This document shows, one piece after another, positions 6,928-59,362 of a stretch of DNA of 64,000 nucleotides. How positions within the stretch are numbered: position 1 is the first letter of the stretch; each line of letters starts with the position of its first letter. A model generated the notes under the pieces. It saw nothing but the letters and a program-made list of their open reading frames with translations, did not search any database and was not told the origin of the DNA. Source of the stretch: Chitinophagaceae bacterium (GTDB taxonomy: Bacteria; Bacteroidota; Bacteroidia; Chitinophagales; Chitinophagaceae); NCBI GenBank assembly GCA_036520835.1, contig DATDIX010000324.1, forward strand, positions 17,332-81,331, given 5' to 3'. A program made the position numbers and the translations under genes.

Positions 6928-9453
6928 TTAGTTTTTTAAATTGCTGATTTGCTTAAGAAAAACCCAGGTTTCCCCTTTCTTCGTTCCTTTAATGCCTTCC
7001 TGGTATTTCGTCATTCGTTTATTCCATTCGATCATACGTGGATTATTTTCGGTTGTTTTTGGATTTAACATATCCAGGTTTTCCCCTTTCGGTATACTTA
7101 TTACCAGTACTAACTGCCTTCCATTTTTAAACAAGATTAACTGCTGAAAATTTGCATTACAAAACCCTTTTGCCACTTCCGGCCATTCTTCAAATTGGGT
7201 GGCATGATAATCCAAGTATTCCTGTTGCAGCTTTTTATCAGCAACGAGGTTGGCAGTTAGCAGGATGTGATCCCATTCACTTGCGACAGTCTTGCCGTTG
7301 CAATGCTTTTGCCTGTTATACTCATAAAACAGGTCGTGATATACTTTAACATCCACCCCTGGGAAATTATTTTTCAGCCGGCCCTGCATTACTCCAATAT
7401 CCTGTACTTTACCAAACAACACATAATGATTCTGCCATTGGTAGATAGCTGAGGTATCCATTTTGTTTTGGAACAGAATAGCTTTTAATTTATCCAGGTC
7501 AAGTATTTCGTTTTCCTTTACCACCAATTCGATCACTTCACTGTGTTCTTCATTAATTGACAGGCGGTGCAAGACTGGTGATCTTTCTTTTAACAAATAC
7601 TGATACTGCATTTTCAAACCGGCGTTAAGTTTTATGCTTTCACCTACCTGCGGCCCATTATTATTCCATTCATTACCGGGACCGTTGGCATTCTGTAAGT
7701 ATTTTGGGGAAGGCGTCCAGTTATCTTTTACGATGAAATAAGAAGATCCTTCGTCTGTATAAACATAAAACCAGTGAGAAGGCAGGTGAGCATAAGGAGC
7801 TTTGTAAATGCTGTCAATATAATTCTCACTGATAACAGAACCCGGCTGGGCACTCAATGTGTAAATGCCGGCGCAATCATAATTATGTTTGCCATAGTGG
7901 TGAATCTTATTCCGGGTAATTTTATTATTCCTCATGGCATTGGCAGTTGGTGACCACCCCCAGCCCATACTGATCCCTGTGTAAGACACATTCCCTATTT
8001 CATTCTCTTCGATCGTTGTATTTTTTGCATAGCCAATGCCAATACCCACGCAACTCCAATCTTCATTCGTCGCATCAGTAATTAGGTTATTGCTGATCGT
8101 CATTTTATTACAAACTTCTCTTTCGTCTTTGGGATTATAGGGTAAATGAATTTCGGTGGCCTCATCAGAATATACCCCGGCAAGAATGGCTGTACCGCCA
8201 ATATCTTTGAATAAATTTCCTTTGATCACATTATCATGTACTGCTTTGTTATAGTCCAGCCCGGTTGACGCCAGGTGTTCAAAGCGGCAATTTTCAAATC
8301 CTGTTTGATCCGCATAGGAAACTTCAACAGCCGCAGCAGGTCTGCCAACCCATGCCTGGTTATCCAATGTTGGTTTATCAGGCGTTCCGGCGGGTCTTAA
8401 TTTATAAGCTTCGAGCATATACATTCCCGCCTGGTGGAGAACATGACCATAATGCGATGGCCGCAGCCAACCAGTATGCTGAAATGAAATGCCGTTGAAA
8501 AAAATATTTGAAACTGGATGATCAATAGTTCCCTGTATGCTTACCAGTGTTTCTAAAAAAGGGGCAGTAACAGTAGCAGTCAACAAATTCTCATTATCGC
8601 GGGGCCAGTAATATAATTTCCTGTTTGCAATATCCAGCCACCATTCGCCGGGTTCATCCAGGAATTGAATAGCATTCGTTAAGTAAAAAGCTGAATTGCC
8701 TGTTTCATTGGATATCCATGGGGCGGGCCAGGGATGTTCGCTTTGTATCTTACTTTCAGGCTGATGAAAAAATAATTTAGCACTATCTCCCTGTACTTCC
8801 ATTTTCCTGATCCGCAATATCGCCACTGCCCACCATTGATGAATGAACATTTCCAACCCGGCCATATTTCTTCCCGCCAAAGATTTCGGGGCAGGTATCC
8901 AACAACTCTCTTCATTTTTATTCCAGCTTAATATCCTGTTCATGCTTTGGCCATTCATATCCTTTGCACGAACAGCTTTTTCATTATTGACCCATAATTG
9001 CCGGAACTCAAACAATTTTCCGCCTATTAACGGTACATCAGCTATCCAAACTTTTCCTTTTGACAAAGAAGGCAATCCGGCAATAGTTGTAACCGGCCTT
9101 TTCCAACCACTGATCCTGATACCGCCGCTAAGTACAGGTTGCTCACCCGGTGCTGCTTCGATGTATGTTGGGCTTGTCGTTGTTCCTGCATCTTCGGGAC
9201 GAATAAATAAAGGTTCGGATAATTGGTAAGTTCCACCTTTGAGGATAATATGAATACCATTGGTAAGGGATGCATCATTCAACCGGCGTAATTCTCTTGC
9301 CTTTCGTAAAGCAGCAGTAAGAGTAGCGAGTGGCTTATCTTTTGTTCCGGGATTGTTGTCAGATCCGTTAGGGGCTACATGTATATCAACAGCATTGCCG
9401 GTAAGAGCAACCAGCATTAAAAATGCAAAAAGGCATAGTGGCAATCGTTTCAT
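6928..9453 (-). CDS. Secreted right-handed parallel beta-helix protein fused to a C-terminal L-rhamnose mutarotase-like (RhaM/DUF718) domain
   Basis: The 841-aa product has a signal peptide (LCLFAFLMLVALTGNA). The N-terminus is typical of beta-helix proteins (VDIHVAPNGSDNNPGTKDKPLATLTAALRKA). The last ~105 aa (QQEYLDYHATQFEEWPEVAKGFCNANFQQLILFKNGRQLVLVISIP...) follow the RhaM pattern Y..H....WPE. Confidence 0.7.
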   Translation of the reverse strand: MKRLPLCLFAFLMLVALTGNAVDIHVAPNGSDNNPGTKDKPLATLTAALRKARELRRLNDASLTNGIHIILKGGTYQLSEPLFIRPEDAGTTTSPTYIEAAPGEQPVLSGGIRISGWKRPVTTIAGLPSLSKGKVWIADVPLIGGKLFEFRQLWVNNEKAVRAKDMNGQSMNRILSWNKNEESCWIPAPKSLAGRNMAGLEMFIHQWWAVAILRIRKMEVQGDSAKLFFHQPESKIQSEHPWPAPWISNETGNSAFYLTNAIQFLDEPGEWWLDIANRKLYYWPRDNENLLTATVTAPFLETLVSIQGTIDHPVSNIFFNGISFQHTGWLRPSHYGHVLHQAGMYMLEAYKLRPAGTPDKPTLDNQAWVGRPAAAVEVSYADQTGFENCRFEHLASTGLDYNKAVHDNVIKGNLFKDIGGTAILAGVYSDEATEIHLPYNPKDEREVCNKMTISNNLITDATNEDWSCVGIGIGYAKNTTIEENEIGNVSYTGISMGWGWSPTANAMRNNKITRNKIHHYGKHNYDCAGIYTLSAQPGSVISENYIDSIYKAPYAHLPSHWFYVYTDEGSSYFIVKDNWTPSPKYLQNANGPGNEWNNNGPQVGESIKLNAGLKMQYQYLLKERSPVLHRLSINEEHSEVIELVVKENEILDLDKLKAILFQNKMDTSAIYQWQNHYVLFGKVQDIGVMQGRLKNNFPGVDVKVYHDLFYEYNRQKHCNGKTVASEWDHILLTANLVADKKLQQEYLDYHATQFEEWPEVAKGFCNANFQQLILFKNGRQLVLVISIPKGENLDMLNPKTTENNPRMIEWNKRMTKYQEGIKGTKKGETWVFLKQISNLKN

Positions 9454-9504
9454 TTATCCTTTGTTGACGCTATTAAATATCCTTAATTAGCAGGCAATTA
9501 GCAA

Positions 9505-9573
9505 CTAAATGTACCCCTGCAAGACGCCCTGAAAAATGTAAGTATTTGCTATAATGATGGAGGATTTTACTAT
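9505..9573 (-). promoter_or_regulatory. Operator-promoter module, copy 1: a 25-nt direct-repeat operator, a -33-like WACATT element and a -7-like TACATTTAG box
   Basis: The minus strand reads ATAGTAAAATCCTCCATCATTATAG (9573..9549), then 35 nt, then TACATTTAG (9513..9505). The ATG at 9453 lies 52 nt downstream. The same architecture occurs at 14551-14619 and 59248-59316. Confidence 0.6.
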
Positions 9574-9797: not shown

Positions 9798-11354
9798 TTA
9801 ATATCCATCATTCTGTATTAATTGCGGGTTATTGTCCAGTTCACTTTGCTGAAAAGGCAGCAGATAATTTTTCGTCTCGAACTTCAGCGGTATATTGGCA
9901 GGTGTACTAAGTGTAGGCAACTTGATGTGTGCAATATTCCATCTCTTCAGGTCATTATAGCGTTGTCCTTCCAACGCAAATTCTATTCTTCTTTCATGCC
10001 TTATATAATCTCTCAACTTTTCCTTCGTATCATATTTTACCTGGTCGGTCGGGGGCATCGCAATCCCGGCTCTGCCTCTTACCTGGTCTATTGCCGCATA
10101 GACTGAAGCATCAGGACCACTCACTTCATTTTTCGCCTCAGCAAGCATTAATATTATATCTGCGTAACGCAAATGAATATAGTCCTGGTCTGTTGACGTC
10201 GCTGTCGTTGTGGTAAATGGCGCCCGTGTAAGATCAACATACTTCTCAGTGATGAAACTTGTTGCCGGCACATAACTACCCGACCACACCACGTTTGTAT
10301 TAGGGTTCCTCCATACTTCACCGGGAAGTTTTACCGTAAGATCAAGACGCGGATCACGGTTTAGGTAGGGAGTTGTGGGATTATACAAGGGTGACTCAGT
10401 AATAGATCTTCCGTCGGTCATTTCATAATCATCTATAAGATTTTTGTAAGGCTGCATCAATGAATACCATCCAAGCTCGATATCCATCCCGGCCGCACCA
10501 GGGCTTGTTCTCTGCGGATTGGATGTGGTAAGGTACTGGGTAGAGAACATGATCTCGATATTAACCGCTGCATTTGTTTGGCCTGACGTTTTAAAGATGG
10601 ATGCATAGTTATTGGATAATCCAAATTTGCCTGCCGCATTGCTCATGATCTGCTGCAACAGGGTCACAGCATTTGTCCATTTTTGTTCGGTTATCAAAAC
10701 TCTTGCTTTAATTCCCTGTGCACTTCCCCTTACCGCATGACCATTATATTTTTCATCGGGCAAATTGGCAATTGCATAGTCAAGGTCTTCTTCAATAAAG
10801 GCATATACCTCTTCCTTTGTACTCTTGGGGATCTTTACAGCATCCAGCGTAGTCGGGTAATTTTTATATACCACAACGCCACCGTAACTCTGCACAAGGT
10901 CGAAATAACACAATGCCCTGATAAATCTTACCTCCGCTTTGTATAAATTCTTCTTTGCATCTGTCAGTGGTGCCTTGTCAACATTGTCAAGAAAAAAATT
11001 GCAGGAAGAAATAGCCCTGTAAGGCGAGCTATACATATTAGCCAACGCACCACCTAAAGTAGGAGATATCCCGCCGGTTGTCATCAATAACATATTTGGC
11101 TGGTTGGTATTACCATCGAGATAAGCATTGTCTGACAGACCGTCGAGGTATATTCTTTCGTAACCAAGAAAATTCTGCTGCAGCCTTGTATAAACACCGG
11201 CCAAAGCACTTTGCACATCCGTCTCCGATGCCCAGAATATCTGGGTCGATACGCTGTCAAGGGGTGCCTTATCCAAAAAGTTTTTCTTACATGATGTAAC
11301 ACCGGCTACCAGGCAAATGCAAATAAAGGTGACGATTTTATTTTTGATAGTCAT
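9798..11354 (-). CDS. SusD/RagB-family nutrient-binding outer-membrane lipoprotein (pair 1)
   Basis: The 518-aa product has a lipobox (LVAGVTSCKK) and lies immediately downstream of a SusC-like gene. It shows TPR-like SusD features and the typical C-terminal NPxLxQNxGY. Confidence 0.9.
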   Translation of the reverse strand: MTIKNKIVTFICICLVAGVTSCKKNFLDKAPLDSVSTQIFWASETDVQSALAGVYTRLQQNFLGYERIYLDGLSDNAYLDGNTNQPNMLLMTTGGISPTLGGALANMYSSPYRAISSCNFFLDNVDKAPLTDAKKNLYKAEVRFIRALCYFDLVQSYGGVVVYKNYPTTLDAVKIPKSTKEEVYAFIEEDLDYAIANLPDEKYNGHAVRGSAQGIKARVLITEQKWTNAVTLLQQIMSNAAGKFGLSNNYASIFKTSGQTNAAVNIEIMFSTQYLTTSNPQRTSPGAAGMDIELGWYSLMQPYKNLIDDYEMTDGRSITESPLYNPTTPYLNRDPRLDLTVKLPGEVWRNPNTNVVWSGSYVPATSFITEKYVDLTRAPFTTTTATSTDQDYIHLRYADIILMLAEAKNEVSGPDASVYAAIDQVRGRAGIAMPPTDQVKYDTKEKLRDYIRHERRIEFALEGQRYNDLKRWNIAHIKLPTLSTPANIPLKFETKNYLLPFQQSELDNNPQLIQNDGY

Positions 11355-11358
11355 TGTA

Positions 11359-14300
11359 TTAGAATTTAACGTTTAAGCCAAGATTAAGAATTCTAGCTTG
11401 CGGGTACTGAACATAATTACCCGTAGTACTTGCCCGTTCGGGGTCACTTCCTTCATACTGTGTAAACGTTGCAAGATTATCCGCAGAAAAATATACCATT
11501 AGACCTTTGGCTTTTATGCGGGAACAAATGGATGCGGGAAGTGTATAGGAAAGCATGATGTTTTTCAATCGTAAATACGATGCATCCATCAGGTAATAAG
11601 TGGAACCCGTGTAAGCAGCTACTCCTGTATACCCTGCTGTATAGATAGCCGGTAATGTATTACTCCGGTTCTGTGGCGTCCAGGCATCACGCCATTTTGT
11701 TGTGGGTGGTGTACCCTGCATAAAAGGATCAACACCCCAGTTATTTACCCGGTTCTTTAATCCTTCAACACCCTGGAAAAAGAAAGTCAACTCAAAATTT
11801 TTATACCCAACATGTCCGCCGAAAGAATAGATGAAATCAGGATAAGCGCCATCAACGGCCATACGGTCATTGGCGTTTACAATCTTATCACCATTTATAT
11901 CCTTCATTTTAAGATCGCCTGCTTTGGGTGAAGCATTCAAGGCATGTACCGGAACATTGGGATTACCGATATCTTCAACCTGGAAAATACCATCCCATAT
12001 GTACAGGTAATGTGCATCATAAGGATAACCCACCTGCCTGATCGATGTACCAAAAGAAGGTGTGATGATCTGGTCTACCTGATTTTTCGCGGTTGAAAAG
12101 AGACCATTAAGACCATATCTTACATCGCCGATCTTATTCTCGTGTCTTAACTCAAGCTCTATTCCCTGCGAATGCATCTTTCCATTGTTAGTTGTTGGAC
12201 CGGATAAACCCAGGCTTGCAGGCACAGGTATTGAAGAAAGAATATCAAACGTGTTTTTCCTGAACCAGTCAAATGTAACACCCAGCAATCCTTTGAAAAT
12301 ATCAAGGTCGAATCCAAAATCAGTGATCTTTGTTGTTTCCCATTTAATGCTCTGGTCCCTGAATGAATTTAATACAGCTCCGGAAACCGGGGTGCCATTG
12401 CCAAAAGGATAACTAACATTAAGAGACAGAACATCCTGGTAAGGATAATTACCAATATCCTGGTTTCCAAGTGTACCATAAGATGCCCGGATTTTAAAAT
12501 TATTTACCCAGTCAAGTTTATCCCTGAAAAAATCTTCACTTGACAGCAGCCATCCTGCCGATACGGAAGGAAACAATCCCCATCGGTAATCCTCTGAAAC
12601 CCTGGATGTGCCATCATATCTCAGGTTTGCTTCCAATAAATATTTGCCTTTATAATTATAGTTGACTCTTCCAAAAAATGATTGCAGTACGGCTTCAGAA
12701 GGTCCCGACAATCCCGGCAATCTCGGATATGTATTTAACAAGGCCTCGCCGGTTGATGAATACCCGGCAATCTCGGTCAGGGTAGATGACACGCCGTTAA
12801 ATCTTCTGCCACGCAATGTCTGGAACTTATTATAAACCTGTTCATATCCTGCCAGTGCTTTCACAGAGTGATCGCCGAACATATTGTCGTAGGAAACGGT
12901 CGTGTATATAGTGGGGGATAAGGTTTTTGAATACTGGTCAGTAACACCCACAAGGTCTGGTCCAAGAGTGAAAGCCTGGTAATCATTTGTTGCAGGATCT
13001 TTCACCTGTAAATAATAGGATTGATAAGGGTGCTGGTACATTTTGTAGTACTCGTCCGTGTAGTTCACTGCTACTTTGGACGACCAGGTAAATGATTTGA
13101 GGAATTTGACATCCATATATGCCTGTGCATTCAGGTTGTATTCTTTAAAATTCTGCCATCCCATGGCAAAAGCCTCCTGTGCATTCCGGTTCTTTCCTTC
13201 GTTAACGTAAGCCTTTGTAACAATCCTTCCGCTGCCATCAGGTAAGAAAGGCCCGATCAAAGGTCCGGCTGCATAAACCAGCAGCGAAACATTCTCGCTT
13301 GTAAAAGCTGGTTCCTGCCTGTCCTTATAGGTGCCGTTTAATATTGTACCTATCGTTACTGCTTTACTGACCTGGTTAGTGTAGTTCAGCAAAATATTAT
13401 ACCGTTTGAAACTATACTCAGGCAGCATGGCATCCTGGTCAAGATAACTTACAGAAAGATTATAGGCGCTTTTGTCACTGCCTCCTGAAAGCGATAAGTT
13501 ATGATTCATGACAAATGCAGGCTGGAAATAGTAATCTACCGGATCAAAATTGGGATACTGGTTGCGGTCTGTTGCATTCCTGTACTTGTCGATCTCAAGA
13601 GGGTCATATTTAAAAGCTACCCCGCTGCGGGTAGCAGCTGCATTATACATTTCCATGTATTCTGCTGAATTTGTGATGAAGTCCGGGAATGCTGTAGCAG
13701 CCTGTCTTGAAAAATTGACAGTATAGTTAACCAGCGTCGCTCCTTTTTTACCTTTTTTTGTTGTGATCAGAACTACACCATTGGCCGCTCTTGATCCGTA
13801 GATAGATGCGGAAGCTGCATCCTTTAATACTGTGATATTCTCTATATCATTTGGTGAAAGGTTATTGAAATTCCCGATCACACCATCTATTAATACTAAT
13901 GGAGCAGTGCTGGTAGAAAATGAGCTGCGGCCACGTATCAGAAGCGCCGGGTTATCACGGCCAGGCTCGGAAGAAGGTTGTGTTACCTGTAAGCCTGTTA
14001 CCCTGCCTTCGAGCAGGTTGGCAGAATTAGGAGCGGGTCTTCTTGTCAATACACTACCGGAAACAGTGGCAACAGAGCCGGTAAGATTTGCTTTCCGTTG
14101 TGAGCCATACCCGATCACTACAACATCAGACAATGTAGATTCTGCAACTTTCAATTGGATGGCAATCGTGCTTTTGCCACTTACATTCACTTCCTGTTCC
14201 TCATGACCGACATAAGAGAATACCAACCGGGTAGCACCCTGCGGCATTTGTATTGAAAAATCGCCGTTTGCATCGGTAACAACTGATACTTGTGTTCCTT

Positions 14301-14478
14301 TCGCTGTAATCGAAACTCCGGTCAATGGTTCACCATCCTGGTTGGTAACCTTACCAGTGATCGTTGCCTGGAATGGTGATCGGAAGTGATCAACGTGATT
14401 GTTGGAGAAACCGGGAGTGGCCAGTGCCGGGAAAGACAGGCAAAAAACTATCCCTACGGCAAGCAGTTGTCGTTTCAT
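11359..14478 (-). CDS. SusC/RagA-family TonB-dependent outer-membrane transporter (pair 1)
   Basis: The 1039-aa product has a signal peptide and a carboxypeptidase-regulatory-like domain (ITGKVTNQDGEPLTGVSI). It also has a plug region (VVVIGYGSQRKANLTGSV) and a C-terminal beta-barrel ending in F. No N-terminal STN extension is present. Confidence 0.9.
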   Translation of the reverse strand: MKRQLLAVGIVFCLSFPALATPGFSNNHVDHFRSPFQATITGKVTNQDGEPLTGVSITAKGTQVSVVTDANGDFSIQMPQGATRLVFSYVGHEEQEVNVSGKSTIAIQLKVAESTLSDVVVIGYGSQRKANLTGSVATVSGSVLTRRPAPNSANLLEGRVTGLQVTQPSSEPGRDNPALLIRGRSSFSTSTAPLVLIDGVIGNFNNLSPNDIENITVLKDAASASIYGSRAANGVVLITTKKGKKGATLVNYTVNFSRQAATAFPDFITNSAEYMEMYNAAATRSGVAFKYDPLEIDKYRNATDRNQYPNFDPVDYYFQPAFVMNHNLSLSGGSDKSAYNLSVSYLDQDAMLPEYSFKRYNILLNYTNQVSKAVTIGTILNGTYKDRQEPAFTSENVSLLVYAAGPLIGPFLPDGSGRIVTKAYVNEGKNRNAQEAFAMGWQNFKEYNLNAQAYMDVKFLKSFTWSSKVAVNYTDEYYKMYQHPYQSYYLQVKDPATNDYQAFTLGPDLVGVTDQYSKTLSPTIYTTVSYDNMFGDHSVKALAGYEQVYNKFQTLRGRRFNGVSSTLTEIAGYSSTGEALLNTYPRLPGLSGPSEAVLQSFFGRVNYNYKGKYLLEANLRYDGTSRVSEDYRWGLFPSVSAGWLLSSEDFFRDKLDWVNNFKIRASYGTLGNQDIGNYPYQDVLSLNVSYPFGNGTPVSGAVLNSFRDQSIKWETTKITDFGFDLDIFKGLLGVTFDWFRKNTFDILSSIPVPASLGLSGPTTNNGKMHSQGIELELRHENKIGDVRYGLNGLFSTAKNQVDQIITPSFGTSIRQVGYPYDAHYLYIWDGIFQVEDIGNPNVPVHALNASPKAGDLKMKDINGDKIVNANDRMAVDGAYPDFIYSFGGHVGYKNFELTFFFQGVEGLKNRVNNWGVDPFMQGTPPTTKWRDAWTPQNRSNTLPAIYTAGYTGVAAYTGSTYYLMDASYLRLKNIMLSYTLPASICSRIKAKGLMVYFSADNLATFTQYEGSDPERASTTGNYVQYPQARILNLGLNVKF

Positions 14479-14550
14479 AGCAAATCGTTAGTTTAATATT
14501 TAATTAATACAGGCTTTCTATAAGAAAAGTAACAAGAACTTTAACCTTTG

Positions 14551-14619
14551 CTAAAAGTAGATTCATGTAAAAGGGAAGACAATGTTATTATTAACTATAA
14601 TGATGGAAGATTTTACTAT
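14551..14619 (-). promoter_or_regulatory. Operator-promoter module, copy 2, upstream of susC-like gene 1
   Basis: The minus strand reads ATAGTAAAATCTTCCATCATTATAG (14619..14595), then exactly 35 nt, then TACTTTTAG (14559..14551). The ATG at 14478 lies 73 nt downstream. Confidence 0.6.
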
Positions 14620-14675: not shown

Positions 14676-16967
14676 TTACTGGAATATTTTTTTCAGATAC
14701 ACCGTATTTGCTCCGTAATTATATTTTGTATCTGAGGCCTTTTTTGCATCGCGGCTTCGTTCGATCACCAGCCAGCCGCTCCAGCCCATTTCATCCAATG
14801 TCTTTTTCACTTTATACATGTCTATCTGCGGGTCCTTCTCCAGCCATACGCTGTCTTTGTTCGTGGCATGTATCATGCAGATACGGTCTTTCCCTAATAT
14901 TTTCAATTCTGATAATAGATCCCTGCCTTCTTTTAATGGATTGGAGAAATTGAAATAGATCTTAATGGCAGGCGAACCGATTTCCTTTAACAACTGTACT
15001 TCTTCTTTCGCACTCAGGGCGGTTTCAATACCAATCACTACATTGGCGGTTTCAGCCATCTTACCCGCTACTTTTAACCTGGCTACAACAGAATCCCTTA
15101 CAGAAGGATTTTTCTTTAAATCGCATTGCACACCCAATGGAAGAAATGCTGTCTTTACATTCATCAGCTTCATAGTAGTGATACAATCTTCAATAGATCT
15201 TTTATATTCCTCCCTGTTGCAGAATGACTGGGCATAATAACCCGTCATAGCTAAGGAAAATATTTCCACATTATTCTCTTTAGCGGTTTGCAAAAACTTA
15301 TTGCGTACTGAGTCAGTCAATAGCTGGTTATCAAATGTCGGTCGGGTGCCTAAACCTCCCATATCTACTTCTACCCCATCTGCTTTTAACTCGCCTGTAA
15401 GCGTGATAGCGCCTAATCGCTGTCTTTTTAATAACATCAGGTCGATCAAGCCAATTTTATACCGCTGGTTGTTCTTTGCTTTTTTTATTTCTTCGTCAAA
15501 AACCATTTCGAGGTTTTCAAACCCTTTAATGGCGTGTGCCGGTAGTCGTTCCCCTTTATCACCAAAAACATATAATGCCTGCTCAGGCTCAATAGTGATT
15601 TTTGATTCATCGATCTTACCAGCTACATCCTGTACAGCTTTTAAGTTCAATCCTAAATATTTCGCCATGAATTCGTACACTGCTGTTCTTTTATTGATAC
15701 CGAAATCATGTTTCTCATCCGGCAGGTGAACATTCACTACATTCTCCTTTTTACCATACCAGCTATACATCTTTTGTAAATAAGGAAAATCATGCTCTGG
15801 CATACGGTCCGTCCAATCACCGCCATCGCTTACTATTAATTGCGGGCGGGGCGCTGCCATCGCTGCAATCTCTACATTGTCTGTTCTTCCGCCACAACTA
15901 TGAATATCCATTCCGCTTTCACAGGGACAACCGCCATAGAAATAAGAAGAAAGCGAAACAACCGGGGCGGATACTTTGATGCGGTCATCCAGGGCTGTCA
16001 TCAACACGGTATGACTCCCTGCACCGGAACCACCGGTCATAGCTACACGATTGATATCTGCGTCCTTTAATGATAATAAATAATCAAGAATTCGGATACT
16101 GCCCAATGCCTGTATCGTCATCGACAAACTCCTGCGGTGGTCTTCAAGTTTAAATTGCAATAATGATTCGCCCCAGGCAAACAGATCGTAACTGAATGCC
16201 ATAGCTCCCATTTTTGCTAATGCCGCACAGCGATACTGGCAATCGGGGCGATACCGTTGTTTTTCCCAATGACCATCGGGATTAAGTATTACCGGTATCT
16301 TACCTTTATACTTTGCAGGTTTGTATAAAGATCCATTGATCCATACACCGGGTAATATTTCTAAGGCGATATTCTCAACTGTATATCCATCAAATTTTCT
16401 TTGCGCTGTGATGACAGGTTTGCCCTTGGGTGCGGCAGGCAAATGTGACAACTGCAACGCTTCAAGCAAACAGGGTTTTAATTCCATTTTCCGCTTTTCC
16501 CATTCTTCTGCTGTTTTGTATTGCGCAGCTATCCTGTCCAGTTCTGCCCAGCCTTCCTCCGGGTTCCAGCGATAATATTCATAATAACTCAGCTTATACA
16601 CTTTATCCTTTTCTTTTTTCACTTTCATGTCCAGCGGCTTCAGTATATTATCTAACGTAACTTCGACATCACTCCTGTATCTCCATTCAGCGTAGCTCAC
16701 TGTTTTATTGGCCACCATGCTATCGGGGTATTTGATGGTCACGCCATACTTCTTTTGAATATCTGTCAAAACCTGTTTTAAAGGTTTGCGGTACGCATTG
16801 TCAGCATTCAACTGGGCAAGAGTTGCATTAGCCCACAAAGACACCAGCACACAAAGAAGAAAGGTATATATCACGCAACGGCGCAAAGCCGTGACGTTTA
16901 GGTTTACTATTCCGGTGTTTCGTTGCCTCGTTGCACCTTTCCCGTAACCTTTAGTATTATTTCTCAT
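14676..16967 (-). CDS. Secreted tri-domain fusion: STN/DUF4974-like module, alpha/beta-hydrolase (esterase) domain and xylose-isomerase-like TIM-barrel domain
   Basis: The track ORF starts with TTG at 17018, so I use the ATG at 16967 (MRNNTKG...). It overlaps the upstream stop by 11 nt. The signal peptide is FLLCVLVSLWANATLAQ. The STN-like stretch reads PLKQVLTDIQKKYGVTIKYPDSMVANKTV...LDNILKPLDMKV. The hydrolase core reads VAMTGGSGAGSHT. The C-terminal ~270 aa (GVEVDMGG...VIGIETA...IYFNFSNP...CMIHATN...WLVIERS) resembles sugar-phosphate isomerase/epimerase TIM barrels. Confidence 0.65.
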   Translation of the reverse strand: MRNNTKGYGKGATRQRNTGIVNLNVTALRRCVIYTFLLCVLVSLWANATLAQLNADNAYRKPLKQVLTDIQKKYGVTIKYPDSMVANKTVSYAEWRYRSDVEVTLDNILKPLDMKVKKEKDKVYKLSYYEYYRWNPEEGWAELDRIAAQYKTAEEWEKRKMELKPCLLEALQLSHLPAAPKGKPVITAQRKFDGYTVENIALEILPGVWINGSLYKPAKYKGKIPVILNPDGHWEKQRYRPDCQYRCAALAKMGAMAFSYDLFAWGESLLQFKLEDHRRSLSMTIQALGSIRILDYLLSLKDADINRVAMTGGSGAGSHTVLMTALDDRIKVSAPVVSLSSYFYGGCPCESGMDIHSCGGRTDNVEIAAMAAPRPQLIVSDGGDWTDRMPEHDFPYLQKMYSWYGKKENVVNVHLPDEKHDFGINKRTAVYEFMAKYLGLNLKAVQDVAGKIDESKITIEPEQALYVFGDKGERLPAHAIKGFENLEMVFDEEIKKAKNNQRYKIGLIDLMLLKRQRLGAITLTGELKADGVEVDMGGLGTRPTFDNQLLTDSVRNKFLQTAKENNVEIFSLAMTGYYAQSFCNREEYKRSIEDCITTMKLMNVKTAFLPLGVQCDLKKNPSVRDSVVARLKVAGKMAETANVVIGIETALSAKEEVQLLKEIGSPAIKIYFNFSNPLKEGRDLLSELKILGKDRICMIHATNKDSVWLEKDPQIDMYKVKKTLDEMGWSGWLVIERSRDAKKASDTKYNYGANTVYLKKIFQ

Positions 16968-18510
16968 TCGTATTCCTTTTTTGCTGTCTCCAATTACTGT
17001 ATAATAAATTTCGGTCAATTACCGGTTTTGGAAAAAATAAACTGGCAATATATCCCACCACGATCACGATCAGGTGACTGTACACACCAAGCATCAGCTT
17101 ATGGTGTGTAAAATTATAGTCACCCAGATCCAGTAATACTTTTTTATTATGGACACCAACCGGTGTTGAGGTCAACAAAGCATAGGCCGTAAATAAAATA
17201 CAAACAATAATGCCGATATTAACTCCCTGCCGGTTGGCCCTTGCGCTCAGTATCCCCAGCAGGAAGATACCAACAATACCCCCGGAAAAGATCGCATATA
17301 AGGTAAAGACCACACCGAGTACCCCCTCGTTGCCTGTACGTAGATATAATGCCCCGATACCTGCGGAAATGATACCGGATAGCACAACGAGAATTTTCCC
17401 GGTGCGCAGGTATTGTTTGTCAGGTCTGCCGGGTTTTAGTTTTTTATAATAATCTTCCACTCCCACAGCAGCCAATGAATTCAGGTCAGCACTGAGGCTA
17501 CAGATAGCTGCGGATACCAATGCTGCTACAATGAAACCGACAATACCAGTCGGCAATTGCGTCATGATGAAATGAGGAAATGCGGCTTCGGCCTTCATCC
17601 CTTCCGGTAATCCTTGTTGCTTATAGAAAACAAATAAGGCTGTGCCAATAAACATAAACATGGTCCAGATTGGAACAGTAAGCGAGATACCCAGCAAGGA
17701 AGCCCTGATAGCTGATTTATCAGTCTTGGCGGTAAGATAACGCTGCACTACTGTTTGGTCAGTACCGTATTTCTGGATAGCATAGAAAGCACCGTTGATG
17801 ATCATAACGATGAGTGTCAACTGTGTAAGGTCTGTATTATAAGGCCCAAATCCTGCCCGATCATTTTCAGAAGCGATCTTTATGGCTTCGGGTACACCGC
17901 CTTTGATAGAGAACAATAATATGCCGAGGCAGATGATACCGCTGGCAAACAACATGAAACCCTGGAATACATCGAGCCAGATAACGGCCTGCATACCTCC
18001 TTTCAGGTTCACAATGATCAATACCAGGCTCACGATGGCAAGAATGGCAAATGCATTGATGCCGGTTATTTTGCTGATGGCTACAGCTATCAAAAAAAGA
18101 ACGGTCCCCATGCCCGCAAACTGGCGGAGAATAAAAGATGATGAGCTATAGTACCGGGCAAAAATCCCAAATCGCTTTTCAAAATACTCGTAAGTGCTTA
18201 ACCCGATCACTTTCCTGTAGAGTGGTACAATGAACCAGATAGTACCAAGCAGAACTATTGGAACCATCAATCCCTGCACTAATAAGATCCAGTTGCTGGT
18301 GAATCCCTGTGCAGGATAACCAAGAAAAGTAACACTGCTGATCAGGGTTGATAATAAGGAAAGCCCCAGTGCCCAGGAAGGAAAATTCCCTTTCGATAAA
18401 AAAAAGTTCTCCGTTGTGTTTTGCTTTTTAGAGAACCTGAAACCAAGATATAATGTGACCCCCATTACAAGCAGGATAATGCAATAATCTATAAAATGTA
18501 AGTGATTCAT
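16957..18510 (-). CDS. Sodium:solute symporter family transporter (SSS paralog 2)
   Basis: This is a polytopic membrane protein. The track start at 18525 is TTG, so I prefer the ATG at 18510 (MNHLHFIDYCIILLV...). Confidence 0.85.
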   Translation of the reverse strand: MNHLHFIDYCIILLVMGVTLYLGFRFSKKQNTTENFFLSKGNFPSWALGLSLLSTLISSVTFLGYPAQGFTSNWILLVQGLMVPIVLLGTIWFIVPLYRKVIGLSTYEYFEKRFGIFARYYSSSSFILRQFAGMGTVLFLIAVAISKITGINAFAILAIVSLVLIIVNLKGGMQAVIWLDVFQGFMLFASGIICLGILLFSIKGGVPEAIKIASENDRAGFGPYNTDLTQLTLIVMIINGAFYAIQKYGTDQTVVQRYLTAKTDKSAIRASLLGISLTVPIWTMFMFIGTALFVFYKQQGLPEGMKAEAAFPHFIMTQLPTGIVGFIVAALVSAAICSLSADLNSLAAVGVEDYYKKLKPGRPDKQYLRTGKILVVLSGIISAGIGALYLRTGNEGVLGVVFTLYAIFSGGIVGIFLLGILSARANRQGVNIGIIVCILFTAYALLTSTPVGVHNKKVLLDLGDYNFTHHKLMLGVYSHLIVIVVGYIASLFFPKPVIDRNLLYSNWRQQKRNTNEK

Positions 18511-22821: not shown

Positions 22822-23799
22822 TTATATAGCAGGATCCAAAGGCACTTTGGGTAGCATCAGGCTTTCAATATCAACCGGTTTTATTTTCAACCGCTCACAC
22901 CACAACCCGAAACTATCATGTATCTCATTCAGGGTTTGTTTCTGTTGGGGTGTCAACTCCAAAGCTGTTGCCCGGCTGATCGTTCGTATCGGCAATCCTC
23001 TTTTACGTAAAAAATATTTAGCACTCATGGGGTATGCCACATGTATCAGCGGGTCAACGCGGCTGATCTCCGATTGCAGCCATTTCACTTCTTCCTGCTT
23101 ATCCGGGTTAGTGGCATTGTTTACCATCCACACTAATATCTCGGGGTAAAAATTACCGGAAATAGATGACATCCCCTTTGCACCCATCTGCAAACTATAC
23201 ATTGCATTGGGTGAATGAGCATCGTAGAACTCCAGGCTATTCCCTGTATCTTTTAATATATCCAGCTTGGCCTTTACCCTTTCCAGTTCGATAGACGTGT
23301 CTTTATGATACACCAGCCGGTTAGCCGACAACAAGGTCTTGAATGTATCCGGCCCAATGATCCTTTTATACGGTGCCGGGCATTCATACATTCCCAAAGG
23401 AATATTGCCGGTAAGTTTGAACATCTTATCAAAATTGCGCAGCAGTATATCGTCACTGTCTTCAATATTGGCATAATGGCCGGTGATCAGTATCACCGCA
23501 CTAATTCCCGTATCATATATTTTCTTCGTAAACTCTGCTTTGTCTTCGATCGTCAGACCGAATGAACCGGTAGCCACTACCGGCACACGGCCATTGACAT
23601 ACTTCACAATATGCTGCGTCAGCTCCAGTCTTTCATCCTCTGTAATACTATACATTTCACTGCTCAGGCAATTAGCGAAAAAACCTTTGACACCCGCAGC
23701 TAAATAAAAATCAATGAGGTTACTCACCACATCCAGATCAACCTTTGCTTTGAGGTTGAAGGGGGTGATCATTACCGGAACAAATTTTCTGTCACTCAT
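22822..23799 (-). CDS. DHDPS/NanA-family class I aldolase (divergent paralog 2)
   Basis: The 325-aa product starts VPVMITPF and has a lysine context of VYHKDTS. The usual GxxGE motif is replaced by ANCLSSEMYS. Confidence 0.7.
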   Translation of the reverse strand: MSDRKFVPVMITPFNLKAKVDLDVVSNLIDFYLAAGVKGFFANCLSSEMYSITEDERLELTQHIVKYVNGRVPVVATGSFGLTIEDKAEFTKKIYDTGISAVILITGHYANIEDSDDILLRNFDKMFKLTGNIPLGMYECPAPYKRIIGPDTFKTLLSANRLVYHKDTSIELERVKAKLDILKDTGNSLEFYDAHSPNAMYSLQMGAKGMSSISGNFYPEILVWMVNNATNPDKQEEVKWLQSEISRVDPLIHVAYPMSAKYFLRKRGLPIRTISRATALELTPQQKQTLNEIHDSFGLWCERLKIKPVDIESLMLPKVPLDPAI

Positions 23800-23819: not shown

Positions 23820-23887
23820 ATAAATATTCGATTTTTTAGCCCCAAAAAGATGTAGGATACTACTATTGTCCTGTATTATTTTACTTT
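23820..23887 (-). promoter_or_regulatory. Degenerate fourth copy of the operator-promoter module (candidate internal promoter)
   Basis: The minus strand reads AAAGTAAAATAATACAGGACAATAG (23887..23863). ATAG is retained at module position 22, TACATC (23854..23849) sits at module positions 34-39, and AATATTTAT (23828..23820) falls one nt short of the usual spacing. The ATG at 23799 follows. Confidence 0.35.
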
Positions 23888-52163: not shown

Positions 52164-52257
52164 TTTTACACTGATTGAATTTTATTAGACGGTTTAACCG
52201 GAAATAAACTGCGGCTAATTCAAAATTTTTTCTTTCAAACCCTGTTTACTTTATCCG

Positions 52258-52288
52258 TATAAAAAAGAGAAAGCACTACACTTTCTCT
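52258..52288 (-). terminator. Rho-independent terminator after the susCD-2/lipoprotein operon
   Basis: The minus-strand RNA reads AGAGAAAG-UGUAGUG-CUUUCUCU followed by UUUUUAUA. It lies 25 nt after the stop at 52313. Confidence 0.75.
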
Positions 52289-52312
52289 TCTTTAAAATAT
52301 TATTGAGAAAGT

Positions 52313-53262: not shown

Positions 53263-55107
53263 TTATTGTAATGGGTCAAAAGTTCCATTTATCCAGCCTG
53301 CTGTTTGCTCAATAAAAAAGTTTTGGCTGAAAAAATTGGGCAATGCGTAGAAATAGTATTTCGCCGGTATGTTAATCGAATTTGAACCTTCGAGTGAAGC
53401 AATAGTGCCAGGCGTTGTATAAATAGATGTATAAACTGATTGGTTATTAAGGTTAGCTGTATCTCTCGGTCTTACACCAAAAGCATTAGGTGCATCAATG
53501 TATATTCTGCCAGCAACCGGGGGATTCGGAGGATTACCGGCTACGTAGGGTAGCTTAGCAGCCAGTTTGTACGATTGACGTGCAGAAATAAGACCATAGT
53601 TCCTGGTCCTTCTCAAATCCCAATAACGTTTTCCTTCGATGGCAAATTCGATCATACGTTCATTTAATATCAAACTTCTCATGGATGCTATGTCAACAGC
53701 AACATCTAAACCATAATCAAATGAGCCGGCTACTATTCCTGCCCTCTGGCGGATACGGCGTACATTATCTTTTGCTTCTGCCATCCTGTTTGTTTCATTG
53801 GCGCATTCCGCAAGGTTCAACACTACTTCTGCAAATCTCATCTCTATCCAATCCATACCGCTACCCCCACCCGAATTAGAATTATATACGGATTGAGCAG
53901 GAGTTAATGTGTTATTAGTAAATCGTTTGAAATAAAAGCCTGTTACGATTGTTCCAGCCGCTTCATCAGGAACTCCCGTATGTGACCATTGTTTGCGTGT
54001 AGCTTTCCCACTTAAAGGCCAGGGACCTCCATTATAAGCAATGGAAGCTTCAAAACGAGCATCTCTGTTTTGCCAGAACATAATAGGATCATATTTAACT
54101 ACTGTATCAGCGGCTACTGAGTTTGTTACAGGCATGCCGTTGGATTTTAAATACGCCTGTACTAAGTTCCAGGTCGGTTGATTTGATCCACTGGGTCCAT
54201 CTGTTTCAGAATCAGGCCTGGTAATAGCTTCGGTGTTGGTACCTACATCCCTTGCGGCACTGTATTTCCTTACCAACAGCACCTCAGCATTGTCCTCTGT
54301 TGTAAAAATATTTGCGTACGTTGGAAATAACGAATACCCGTCTCCAACGCATTGGTTATAAGCGTCAAGATTTGCCTGGTATGCATCTTCCCAACGTGAT
54401 GCAATATTCGTAGGATTAAACTGCGGGCTTGCCCAATACATTAGCACTTTTCCTTTCATAGCTGACGAAGCAGCCCTGGTTATTCTTCCTTTATCAGCAG
54501 CGCCCCATGTAGCCGGAAGGTATGCTATAGCAGAGTCCAGGTCTTTTACAATTGCTGCAATACATTCGCTTGTTTTGGCACGGGGAACATTCAACTCTTC
54601 CTCGAGAGTCTGAGATTGTAATACCAATGGTACGCCGCCATATAAGCTAACTAACCTGAAGTAAACAAAGGCCCGCAAAAAGAAAAACTGGCCTTTCAGA
54701 ACCATCCTCGTTGCTTCCGGCAAAGTACTGTTAGAATTAAGACCTTCAATCGCAATATTACAACGACGGATATCAAAATAGCGATTGGTGGTAATGCCAT
54801 TCCCTGTTCCTATATCAGTAACAGAGTTTTCTACTAATGTACCATATAAGAATGCCGTGTTAGCATTGTTGAGCTCATCAGAAGTATTGTGAATACCACC
54901 GAGAGCTGGCCACTGGGGTATAATTAATCCATATGTTCTGTTTAGAAACAATCCTACTGCACCCTGATCGTTCCAAATTCTGGAATCAATTCCCTGCGGG
55001 TCTTCAATATCGAAAAATTCTGAATCTTTTTTACAGGCAGAAAAAACCATACATAGAGCCAGGGCTGCTATAACCATTTTTTTTCCTGTATTGCTTATAT
55101 ATCTCAT
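53263..55107 (-). CDS. SusD/RagB-family nutrient-binding outer-membrane lipoprotein (pair 2)
   Basis: The 614-aa product has the lipobox CMVFSACKKD and SusD-like features (RAFVYFRLVSLYGGVPL, IEFAIEGKRYWDLRR). Confidence 0.9.
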   Translation of the reverse strand: MRYISNTGKKMVIAALALCMVFSACKKDSEFFDIEDPQGIDSRIWNDQGAVGLFLNRTYGLIIPQWPALGGIHNTSDELNNANTAFLYGTLVENSVTDIGTGNGITTNRYFDIRRCNIAIEGLNSNSTLPEATRMVLKGQFFFLRAFVYFRLVSLYGGVPLVLQSQTLEEELNVPRAKTSECIAAIVKDLDSAIAYLPATWGAADKGRITRAASSAMKGKVLMYWASPQFNPTNIASRWEDAYQANLDAYNQCVGDGYSLFPTYANIFTTEDNAEVLLVRKYSAARDVGTNTEAITRPDSETDGPSGSNQPTWNLVQAYLKSNGMPVTNSVAADTVVKYDPIMFWQNRDARFEASIAYNGGPWPLSGKATRKQWSHTGVPDEAAGTIVTGFYFKRFTNNTLTPAQSVYNSNSGGGSGMDWIEMRFAEVVLNLAECANETNRMAEAKDNVRRIRQRAGIVAGSFDYGLDVAVDIASMRSLILNERMIEFAIEGKRYWDLRRTRNYGLISARQSYKLAAKLPYVAGNPPNPPVAGRIYIDAPNAFGVRPRDTANLNNQSVYTSIYTTPGTIASLEGSNSINIPAKYYFYALPNFFSQNFFIEQTAGWINGTFDPLQ

Positions 55108-58398: not shown

Positions 58399-59181
58399 TT
58401 ACTGCATTGATCGTTTCTTTGCAGCTTCCCGTTCCTTTATTCTTTTCTGCCATTCTTCTCCTTCCTTTTTCATATCGTAGCCGGCAGCAGAAAGGTAATT
58501 ATTGATCTTCCCTTTATATTTTCCAAAAACCTTGTGTTTATCATCAGATGAGCCTTCGTCCATCGCAAGTTCCCTTGCTTCCTTCAGCCAATTGTATATC
58601 TTATCTTTTTGTTCGGGGCTCAGGTTGGGCAGCATATCCAGGTATGCGCCGTAGGTAATGGGGAAAACCCTGTAGGTCATTCCATCTTTTACTTTTTCCA
58701 ACTGGTCTTCCGTCAGGCTTTCCTTTAAATGAGCAATAAAGCCACTGTGAAGCTGCAATAGCTGTGAAGATTTTTTTTCCTCCAGTCTTTTTATTGATGC
58801 TGCTCTCTCCTCGCCGGATACTGATTGTGTACTTATTTCCGCCATGGCCGCCTTACTTTGTTCATGCACAGCATTAAGCCGGGCATACTGACCAACCAGT
58901 TCATTCAGCACTTTATCATACTTACCCGAGTCCGTCAAACCCAGTGTGCTCACGATCTTAGCCGCCCTTTCTGTGATAACTTTTTTGTATTCTGCTTCCT
59001 TTTGCATCGCATCAACCGGCTGCGCATATACCTGCAAACAAAAAATTGCAGCAGCGGTCAGCAGTAGTATTCTTAAAAAAGAGGATAAAGTAAAAAAGAA
59101 GGATGGAAAAGAAATGCTTGTTTCGGCTATAAAAGCCTTTTTGTACGAAATATCATTATTGGCAAGCAGAACCTGTTTCAT
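58399..59181 (-). CDS. DUF3826-family secreted protein (paralog 2); first gene of the susCD-2 operon
   Basis: The track start at 59223 is TTG, so I prefer the ATG at 59181 (MKQVLL...). The hydrophobic leader is ILLLTAAAIFCLQVYAQ. The product shares the pattern KDGMTYRVFPITYGAYLDMLP.../AREL with the 26598-27323 protein. Confidence 0.6.
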   Translation of the reverse strand: MKQVLLANNDISYKKAFIAETSISFPSFFFTLSSFLRILLLTAAAIFCLQVYAQPVDAMQKEAEYKKVITERAAKIVSTLGLTDSGKYDKVLNELVGQYARLNAVHEQSKAAMAEISTQSVSGEERAASIKRLEEKKSSQLLQLHSGFIAHLKESLTEDQLEKVKDGMTYRVFPITYGAYLDMLPNLSPEQKDKIYNWLKEARELAMDEGSSDDKHKVFGKYKGKINNYLSAAGYDMKKEGEEWQKRIKEREAAKKRSMQ

Positions 59182-59247
59182 CCGGAAAGTTTTTATCGTT
59201 AGGAAAAATGAATGATCGTCCAACTAATACCATTTTCATTCATCCAC

Positions 59248-59316
59248 CTAAAGGTACATGGACACTAAACCCTTAAAAATGTAAGGTTTCGCTATAAAGA
59301 TGGAAGATTTTACTAT
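59248..59316 (-). promoter_or_regulatory. Operator-promoter module, copy 3, upstream of the DUF3826-susC-susD operon
   Basis: The minus strand reads ATAGTAAAATCTTCCATCTTTATAG (59316..59292), then exactly 35 nt, then TACCTTTAG (59256..59248). Confidence 0.6.
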
Positions 59317-59362
59317 TTAATTCAGGAAATAGCTTCCGGGAACGATTGCGTAAATCCCGGCC

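Follow-up and report, generated by a model that had tools for sequence, protein, structure and literature searches.

The 64-kb stretch of Chitinophagaceae DNA analysed here, referred to as the window, carries a conserved 69-nt module in front of three operons of a locus for rhamnogalacturonan II (RG-II), a plant pectin. We are highly confident that this module is a regulated promoter of one kind or another, and with moderate confidence we read it as an activator-dependent promoter in which a tandem site for an AraC-type regulator joins a Bacteroidota sigma-A promoter. The switch would be of an ordinary type, although this example of it, in a soil bacterium, has not previously been described; no description of either the motif or an AraC regulator for RG-II was found in the literature, and the module reveals no new regulatory principle.

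Among known plant polysaccharides RG-II is the most complex, and the switching-on of its degradation genes is poorly understood; two of the RG-II polysaccharide utilization loci (PULs) of B. thetaiotaomicron are without any regulator (PMC3243724). The module provides a precise cis-element for the RG-II loci of soil Chitinophagaceae together with a named candidate regulator family, and a related motif in sister lineages extends this coverage to Sphingobacteriaceae and Cytophagales. Possible uses are the genome-wide delimiting of the regulon, a search for the inducing sugar and the design of inducible promoters for environmental Bacteroidota.

Sequence and Layout of the Module

The three copies reported in the earlier note were all recovered by direct matching (Table 1). 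Each consists of a 25-mer, 8 nt, T/AACATT, 21 nt and TACNTTTAG, and the distance from the 25-mer to the TAC of TACNTTTAG is exactly 35 nt in all three. The 25-mer, ATAGTAAAATCYTCCATCWTTATAG, is invariant at 23 of its 25 positions and varies only at positions 12 and 19. It has three matches with 0 mismatches in the window, and no match with up to three mismatches was obtained in 100 dinucleotide-preserving shuffles. An unguided repeat search of the window led to the same element, as the largest family of direct repeats (D1) comprises three 72-nt stretches that coincide with the module copies. No further diverged copies were found in the other intergenic gaps of the window: the gap at 52164–52312 contains a terminator and no module, and positions 23866–23846 hold only a weak look-alike of a single unit.

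On closer alignment the module resolves into two tandem 21-bp units, an 18-nt variable spacer and TAcnTTTA. Unit 1 reads ATAGTAAAAT-nn-TCCATC-nnn and unit 2 reads ATAGyrAAAC-C-TTACATTG-TT. At offset 21 the two units are identical at 14/21, 12/21 and 16/21 positions in copies 1, 2 and 3, respectively. This is the best of all offsets from 8 to 29 in copies 1 and 3, whereas copy 2 reaches 13 at offset 28. Adjacent random 21-mers of the window have 14 or more identities with a probability of 7e-4. The direct repeat of ATAG at 21 bp that had been noted earlier is thus real and stronger than claimed, since the whole 21-mer repeats, and the module has the periodicity of AraC/XylS-type tandem sites.

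We propose that each unit is a half-site in which an A-box (ATAGTAAAAT) is followed, one helical turn on, by a B-box (TCCATC or TTACATTG). The 25-mer of the earlier note accordingly stands as a sequence but not as a functional unit, which would instead be two full 21-bp bipartite half-sites. Similarly, the WACATT to which that note had assigned the −33 position would still be the presumed −33 element, but because the tandem duplication spans the full 21-bp unit it is the B-box of unit 2 as well.

Table 1. Position of the module copies, of their parts and of the neighbouring features in the window. Parts of features on the minus strand are given in the direction of reading.
Feature	Position	Strand	Sequence or description
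First gene after copy 1	6928..9453	(−)	GH141 insertion domain, beta-helix and C-terminal RhaM (L-rhamnose mutarotase), by Pfam
Module copy 1	9505..9573	(−)
Copy 1, unit 1	9573-9553	(−)	ATAGTAAAATCCTCCATCATT
Copy 1, unit 2	9552-9532	(−)	ATAGCAAATACTTACATTTTT
Copy 1, spacer	9531-9514	(−)
Copy 1, −7 box	9513-9505	(−)	TACATTTAG; predicted TSS near 9501
SusD, downstream of copy 2	9798-11354	(−)
SusC, downstream of copy 2	11359-14478	(−)
Leader box, copy 2	14490-14484	(−)	TAACGAT
Module copy 2	14551..14619	(−)
Copy 2, unit 1	14619-14599	(−)
Copy 2, unit 2	14598-14578	(−)	ATAGTTAATAATAACATTGTC
Copy 2, −7 box	14559-14551	(−)	TACTTTTAG; predicted TSS near 14547
SusD, downstream of copy 3	53263-55107	(−)	followed by a 313-aa gene
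SusC, downstream of copy 3	55132-58350	(−)	downstream of DUF3826
DUF3826 gene, first gene after copy 3	58399..59223	(−)	mechanical ORF start, TTG at 59223
Leader box, copy 3	59201-59195	(−)	TAACGAT, 13 nt before ATG at 59181
Transcript leader, copy 3	59195..59244	(−)	5'-terminal hairpin GATGAATGA...TCATTCAT (59244-59208)
Module copy 3	59248..59316	(−)
Copy 3, unit 1	59316-59296	(−)	ATAGTAAAATCTTCCATCTTT
Copy 3, unit 2	59295-59275	(−)	ATAGCGAAACCTTACATTTTT
Copy 3, −7 box	59256-59248	(−)	TACCTTTAG; predicted TSS near 59244
LacI/PurR-type imperfect palindrome	59337..59351	(−)	ACGCAATCGTTCCCG; sole exact match in the window

Gene Context in the Window

All genes of the window lie on the minus strand, and according to Pfam their content is that of a very large RG-II-type PUL, only part of which is inside the window; a GH78 ORF is cut off by the window end. 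The DNA is not from Bacteroides: one GH78 protein of the window has 100% identity to a protein from an NCBI MAG labelled 'Chitinophagaceae bacterium'. The glycoside hydrolases comprise four GH78 rhamnosidases, GH2, GH43, a GH140 apiosidase and GH141, and they are accompanied by BT_1020-like, DUF6298 and GH127-like proteins, two DUF3826 proteins and two SusC/SusD pairs. Transport is represented by three SSF symporters and one ABC system, and catabolism by a split transketolase, an FGGY kinase, aldolases and dehydrogenases.

The Pfam analysis agreed with the contexts previously ascribed to the three copies, namely beta-helix/RhaM, susC-1 and DUF3826-susC-2. Further downstream of copy 1, the GH141/beta-helix-RhaM gene is followed by genes for a GFO/IDH oxidoreductase, an SSF symporter, and GH78-like and GH127-like proteins. 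For the DUF3826 gene behind copy 3, the conserved ATG at 59181 is the probable start. None of the ORFs of at least 100 aa in the window has a DNA-binding domain according to Pfam, so the absence of a regulator gene from the window, also reported earlier, holds.

Control by an ECF sigma/anti-sigma pair was considered and rejected. In both SusC proteins the only domains are CarboxypepD_reg and Plug, with no STN domain, and there are no sigma or anti-sigma genes; a single FecR_C match lies below the cut-off (21.5 vs 24.4 bits), inside a 780-aa enzyme-like protein.

Conservation in Other Genomes and Metagenomes

One genome per species from 185,579 species (596 Gb) was scanned for the 22-mer GTAAAATCNTCCATCNTTATAG, which has 20 specified bases and is therefore expected to give about one chance match in a sample of this size. 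The scan returned 32 matches, with one or two per contig. The complete layout with divergent spacers was present in 29 of them, nearly all from Chitinophagaceae (Terrimonas, Lacibacter, Segetibacter, Flavihumibacter and others). In these 29, unit 2, ACATTG and TAcnTTTA are equally distanced and the spacers are free; the spacing between the boxes varies by at most 1 nt among the relatives. The other three matches have nothing of the layout downstream and look like chance.

The genes behind the 29 modules are of the three classes that the window also has, i.e., DUF3826-SusC-SusD, SusC-SusD and GH141-type, and pectate-lyase-like genes and a MaoC-like gene with a solute-binding protein are also found behind modules of this sample. 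Orthologous copies precede GH141-type genes at five loci and the genes for a 1036-aa SusC and a 518-aa SusD at two. With 29 of the 32 matches at pectin/RG-II-type genes, the suggestion that the module is a promoter and tandem site specific to a PUL regulon is supported. A generic repeat, as the earlier note had pointed out, would occur many times genome-wide regardless of gene context, whereas the scan shows a rare and context-bound motif.

The conservation of unit 1 in this first sample is partly forced by the search pattern. Because the pattern fixes unit 1 by construction, we collected a second sample of 80 metagenomic loci that were found via the DUF3826 protein alone (39–86% identity), and classified their modules with a core regular expression. 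A module with 0–7 mismatches to the 25-mer lies upstream of DUF3826 at 33 of the 80 loci; 10 have a related Sphingobacteriaceae-type site, 28 have neither, and at the remaining 9 the upstream sequence is too short. The order GH2, module, DUF3826, SusC, SusD, 313 aa, 55x aa is also kept. Altogether the module precedes DUF3826-SusC-SusD at about 14 genome loci and 33 metagenome loci.

In the 33 protein-ascertained modules the conserved stretches are ATAGTAAaAT at positions 1–10 and TcCATC at positions 13–18, with positions 11–12 and 19–21 variable, followed by AAAA..TtACATTgTT (27–42) and TACcTTta. The half-sites of these modules are thus bipartite. The two boxes of each unit, spaced by about 11 bp or one helical turn, would suit a DNA-binding domain with two helix-turn-helix motifs.

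Predicted Core Promoter

Sigma-A promoters of Bacteroidota have a −7 box, TAnnTTTG, at −12..−5 and a TTTG near −33 (PMC9723704, PMC7366714). The boxes TACATTTAG, TACTTTTAG and TACCTTTAG agree with this −7 box at seven of the eight consensus positions (TAnnTTTA, then G), the difference being that the box of the module ends A-G and the consensus ends G. In the protein-ascertained relatives the box starts at offset 60 in 30 of 33 modules and at offset 59 in the other three. The relatives have the consensus ACATTG, the TTG of which ends 20 nt before the TA of the box; in the window, copy 2 has ACATTG and copies 1 and 3 have ACATTT, and the same bases are part of repeat unit 2.

When the TA is set at −12, the TTG of unit 2 would fall at −35..−33, with unit 2 at about −51..−31 and unit 1 at about −72..−52. 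Judged by position, the proximal half-site would therefore overlap the −35/−33 element. The −7-like box and the −33-like position occur at fixed spacing in about 60 independent promoters, which supports the earlier assignment of the last box of the module as a Bacteroidota −7 box and is in line with that of WACATT(T/G) to the expected place of the −33 element. The transcription start sites given in Table 1 are predicted from the position of the boxes. An E. coli-type promoter scan is uninformative for Bacteroidota promoters.

Related Sites in Sister Lineages

At 11 DUF3826 loci without the window-type motif, a divergent gene for a protein of 290–300 aa with cupin and HTH_18 domains is found directly upstream, and likewise at five more loci (L113–L117). 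The gene lies between GH2 (or SSF) and DUF3826, which is the slot where the window has the module. Among the best 120 homologues listed for this cupin-AraC protein, the names are Sphingobacterium, Pedobacter, Mucilaginibacter, Arcicella, Spirosoma and Siphonobacter. In the contexts of two homologues, the gene is flanked on one side by GH2 or by an SSF transporter gene and on the other by DUF3826-SusC-SusD-55x aa-DUF6298.

The intergenic site there reads ATGATAAGATGATACAATAAG TTGATAAATATGGGTAGTAAT, 18 nt, ATATTTGTT. Its geometry, 21+21+18+(−7 box), is identical to that of the window module, and the two have the core AT..TAAnAT..T.CA in common. Fifteen loci of this kind were collected from RG-II PULs of Sphingobacteriaceae and Cytophagales. 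Their sites resemble the module in geometry, in core, in position between GH2 and DUF3826-SusC-SusD and in being present in several copies per PUL; one locus (L116) has four, including one before an SSF transporter gene and one before the gene for a LacI-like protein. They differ from it in sequence, with about 11 of 21 positions identical (ATGATAAGATnATACAATAAG vs ATAGTAAAATCTTCCATCTTT), and in that a divergent AraC gene adjoins the site in the sister lineages, whereas in the window's lineage the corresponding slot has the module and a LacI-type palindrome only.

Intermediate forms of the site, in L094 (...TTGATAATGTTACATTGTT) and in the L058/L077/L112 group (ATAGTAAGATAGTCCATCTTT TTGCGAAAAGATGACATTGTT), link the two families. 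It is chiefly their geometry and position that speak for a homology of the Chitinophagaceae-type and Sphingobacteriaceae-type sites.

Search for the Regulator

Neither the window nor the 8–17 kb upstream of the related loci examined in Chitinophagaceae yielded an AraC-family gene. The upstream 15–17 kb in Terrimonas pollutisoli and Lacibacter sediminis contain only glycoside hydrolases and dehydrogenases and no regulator, and none was seen within about 8 kb around the genome-scan matches examined. Both searches with the Sphingobacteriaceae AraC protein lacked a Chitinophagaceae name among the best 120 homologues, so an orthologue in Chitinophagaceae is not demonstrated, and neither an exhaustive representative search nor a cluster look-up, both with a protein of the same type, gave a Chitinophagaceae member among the best 120–150 matches listed. 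For the window's lineage the cupin-AraC proteins are consequently put forward as a candidate family only.

Several other ORFs were considered as regulators and rejected on the basis of their sequence. Four ORFs of about 290 aa beside modules, taken as possible AraC proteins because of their size, appear to be secreted and have no helix-turn-helix region. An ORF of at least 1138 aa at another locus (L027) reads as a secreted protein of the esterase/fibronectin-repeat type, and a 958-aa ORF at L018 reads as a hybrid kinase without a helix-turn-helix.

Proposed Mechanism and Alternatives

We propose that each 69-nt module is an activator-dependent promoter for the housekeeping sigma factor (sigma-A, Bacteroidota type), and that a dimer with AraC/XylS-type DNA-binding domains binds its two half-sites head-to-tail. 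The promoter-proximal half-site would end on the −33 element, with the TTG at −35..−33, an 18-nt free spacer and TAcnTTTA at −12..−5, so that the proximal monomer would be placed to contact sigma and RNA polymerase. This would be class II activation, as by AraC at araBAD or XylS at Pm. One regulator would turn on at least three RG-II operons together, i.e., DUF3826-SusC/D, the second SusC/D, and GH141-RhaM with transporter and catabolic genes. It would be encoded outside the window and would most likely be a one-component cupin-AraC protein of the cytoplasm that senses a sugar derived from RG-II and is related to the AraC protein encoded beside the homologous site in the RG-II loci of Sphingobacteriaceae and Cytophagales. 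Protein binding, activation rather than repression and the identity of the regulator in the window's lineage are all predicted here from sequence.

To our knowledge, the box sequences of the module are unrelated to any published motif. Its architecture is familiar. Like the I1-I2 site of AraC at araBAD and the sites of XylS at Pm and of RhaR, it has two direct-repeat half-sites at 21 bp, each of them made up of two boxes separated by roughly a helical turn; the proximal one reaches up to or into the −35/−33 element, and the targets are sugar-catabolic. The AraC-type RhaR motifs of Bacteroides also show direct repeats with a 21-bp periodicity (PMC3870299). Unlike the AraC and XylS sites, the module has a promoter of the Bacteroidota −33/−7 type and no linked regulator gene, and its binding is a prediction. 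In periodicity, bipartite half-sites, position relative to −33 and −7 box, the module thus has the sequence features of a class II AraC/XylS-type activator site, apparently fused to a Bacteroidota sigma-A promoter and resembling the HTCS and RhaR sites of Bacteroides.

The linkage of AraC gene and site in the sister lineages, together with the published 21-bp periodicity of Bacteroidota AraC-type motifs, is the reason for favouring an AraC-type dimer. The earlier note had suggested either an AraC-type or a winged-helix activator; the former fits the published site architecture (PMC3878776, PMC3870299, PMC13292587), and no support was found for the latter.

The note had also named a PUL hybrid two-component regulator (HTCS). 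Such proteins carry an AraC-type output domain (PMC3878776, PMC13292587), and after periplasmic sensing of an RG-II oligosaccharide these domains, joined by the kinase dimer, might bind the half-sites of the module. Since neither the DNA-binding domain nor the geometry of the site would differ, the layout of the module fits an HTCS equally well. Predicted HTCS sites of Bacteroides consist of direct repeats with a mean distance of 21 bp (PMC3878776), the DNase footprints of BT4124 are tandem half-sites about 21 bp apart (PMC13292587), and such sites (HTCS_Rgu, HTCS_Man, BT4124) stand, like the module, before several operons of one PUL. Furthermore, the RG-II PUL BT0977-1030 of B. thetaiotaomicron includes an HTCS, BT0981 (PMC3243724). 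Its motif could not be predicted in this species (PMC3878776), so no direct comparison with the site of BT0981 can be made.

Against an HTCS, the largest ORF of the window has 1072 aa and is a SusC, and the 64 kb contain no HTH, HisKA or REC domain; no gene of about 1300 aa with sensor, HisKA, HATPase, REC and HTH_18 was present in the window or in the flanks examined (8–17 kb around related loci). The gene adjoining the homologous site in the sister lineages codes for a one-component AraC protein. The regulon includes inner-membrane transporters and cytoplasmic catabolic enzymes, which is unusual for HTCS regulons (PMC3878776) and also fits a one-component AraC protein, and on RG-II a BT0981 mutant still reaches 78% of the growth of the wild type (PMC3243724). 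We therefore favour a one-component AraC protein and regard control by an HTCS, for which gene position offers no support, as unlikely.

It is quite unlikely, in our estimate, that the module forms the centre of three layers of control, with a LacI-type operator at a favoured upstream distance, the tandem activator site, and a conserved leader element made up of a 5' hairpin and the box yTAACGATwaaa shortly ahead of the start codon. In this arrangement, undescribed for any PUL, an unlinked regulator would control an RG-II 'super-PUL' exceeding 80 kb. As an orthologue was not demonstrated in Chitinophagaceae, that regulator might belong to another family than AraC.

The tandem units might alternatively be bound by a regulator of another kind, such as a LytTR-type response regulator, a SusR-like protein or a member of an undescribed family. 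LytTR sites are 9-bp direct repeats with 12–13 bp spacers, which results in 21-bp phasing, and those of AgrA, ComE and AlgR, with repeats 12 bp apart, are located upstream of the −35 region. The arrangement ATAGTAAAA-N12-ATAGyrAAA of the module agrees with this repeat spacing, no AraC gene is linked to the module in the window's lineage, and the hybrid kinase without a helix-turn-helix at L018 lies upstream of the module there. Unlike the spacer of LytTR boxes, however, the 12-nt interval between the ATAG repeats is conserved, as it holds the second box, TcCATC or TTACATTG, in the protein-ascertained sample. Moreover, geometrically identical sites adjoin AraC genes in the sister lineages, and neither a LytTR nor a SusR-like gene was seen at any locus, all of which makes a regulator outside the AraC family improbable.

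Repression in place of activation was judged more improbable still. The 42-bp region would then be an operator that occludes the −33 element of otherwise constitutive promoters, which is compatible with the overlap of unit 2 and this element and with the LacI-type operator beside many copies; an active variant of BT4124 did repress genes in vivo (PMC13292587). The sites nevertheless reach to about −72 and leave the −7 box and the start uncovered, which is the usual place of an activator. The −33 and −7 elements are off consensus (ATTT/ATTG and TAnnTTTA), as in activator-dependent promoters, and AraC-family proteins with cupin sensors are typically activators.

A dispersed repeat of the REP or MITE kind or a structured RNA without regulatory role, which three near-identical 25-mers in 64 kb might have suggested, is effectively refuted, as the exact matches in 596 Gb are few and have one orientation, the copies number one to three per contig and always lie upstream of carbohydrate genes, similarity ends at the module ends while the spacers diverge, terminal inverted repeats are lacking, folding is weaker than in shuffled sequences (z = +0.6 to +1.3) and the module has no Rfam match.

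Elements Adjoining the Module

The palindrome ACGCAATCGTTCCCG precedes unit 1 of copy 3 by 21 nt, just past the stop codon of the upstream GH2 gene, and is probably the operator for a second regulator, of the LacI family. Of 46 DUF3826-type modules, 28 have a palindrome of this type in the 90 nt preceding them, in most cases 31–33 nt before unit 1, and 29 of the 31 palindromes in 1.09 Mb of collected loci adjoin a module. In L077 the palindrome is perfect (CGCAAACGTTTGCG). One sister locus encodes a LacI-like protein, the gene of which is preceded by an AraC-type site.

Downstream of the module, the sequence yTAACGATwaaa is present in 45 of 58 module-driven leaders, 10–24 nt before the ATG, where 0.07 per leader would be expected. 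Many DUF3826 leaders start with a hairpin, the arms of which change together between loci; the folding z-scores are modest.

Promoter and leader elements accompanying the module

The 21-bp tandem-unit module preceding the DUF3826-SusC-SusD-313 aa operon (copy 3) is accompanied by a LacI/PurR-type palindrome. This palindrome is found in both orientations, usually 31–33 nt 5′ of unit 1 (related loci L033–L112, DUF3826-type modules), and takes the perfect form CGCAAACGTTTGCG in locus L077. It is kept at 28 of the 46 DUF3826-type modules and nearly missing elsewhere in the 1.09 Mb of loci, a distribution which suggests that a second, LacI-family regulator acts on the same promoter as the module.

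Leaders of the module-driven transcripts share the box yTAACGATwaaa, located 10–24 nt 5′ of the start ATG and present in 45/58 leaders compared with an expectation of about 0.07 per leader. The box is not palindromic, and it is not a Shine-Dalgarno sequence either. The DUF3826 leader also contains a hairpin whose complementarity is kept between loci though its arms change (e.g., TTAAGTGAA/TTCACTTAA and GATAAATGAG/CTCATTT), and its folding z-scores are modest (mean -0.7).

Sequence features in and around the module-driven operons
Feature	Position	Strand	Remarks
LacI/PurR-type palindrome ACGCAATCGTTCCCG	59337–59351	minus	
Leader box yTAACGATwaaa	59195–59201 and 14484–14490	minus	Conserved in leaders of L001–L120
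Leader hairpin GATGAATGA...TCATTCAT	59208–59244	minus	Inferred 5′ end of DUF3826 transcript
Terminator-like hairpin AGAGAAAG...CTTTCTCT, then TTTTTT	about 52262–52292	minus	Immediately 3′ of 313-aa gene
GH78 ORF	61801–64000	minus	Listed start TTG at 63963; actually interrupted by window end
780-aa ORF	14676–17018	minus	Just upstream of module copy 2
Weak look-alike of one unit, ATAGTAGTATCCTACATCTTT	23846–23866	minus	92-nt gap 5′ of DHDPS-like gene (22822–23799)

Related sites in sister lineages

In RG-II-type PULs of the Sphingobacteriaceae/Cytophagales-like lineages, a divergent gene for a one-component cupin-AraC regulator adjoins DUF3826 (loci L113–L117, L055, L057, L068, L072, L073, L083, L084, L094, L096, L100, and L109). 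The same PULs contain several sites with the consensus ATGmTAAkATnnTAyAATAAr TkGAkAAA.., followed by 18 nt and AyATTTG. One such AraC-type site in L116 sits 5′ of a LacI-like regulator gene.

Operon and PUL boundaries

The terminator-like hairpin immediately 3′ of the 313-aa gene is a possible end point for the DUF3826-SusC-SusD-313 aa unit. In the window genome no separate module precedes the downstream 552-aa/DUF6298 genes, whereas in L116, a sister locus, a site lies 5′ of the equivalent gene. At the other end, the full-length GH78 protein is 893 aa (P0380, a 100% identical homolog on a 105-kb contig of the NCBI MAG 'Chitinophagaceae bacterium'). Because the locus in relatives continues at least 15 kb farther upstream, with GH2-malectin, GH95 and other genes, the PUL is >80 kb.

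The single-unit look-alike, which lacks both a second unit and a correctly spaced -7 box, may represent an internal promoter or a chance match.

The 780-aa ORF is an uncommon domain fusion, combining a xylose-isomerase-like TIM barrel with a weak glucuronoyl-esterase match and a FecR_C match. The latter falls below the cut-off; judged by Pfam thresholds, the protein does not count as an anti-sigma factor.
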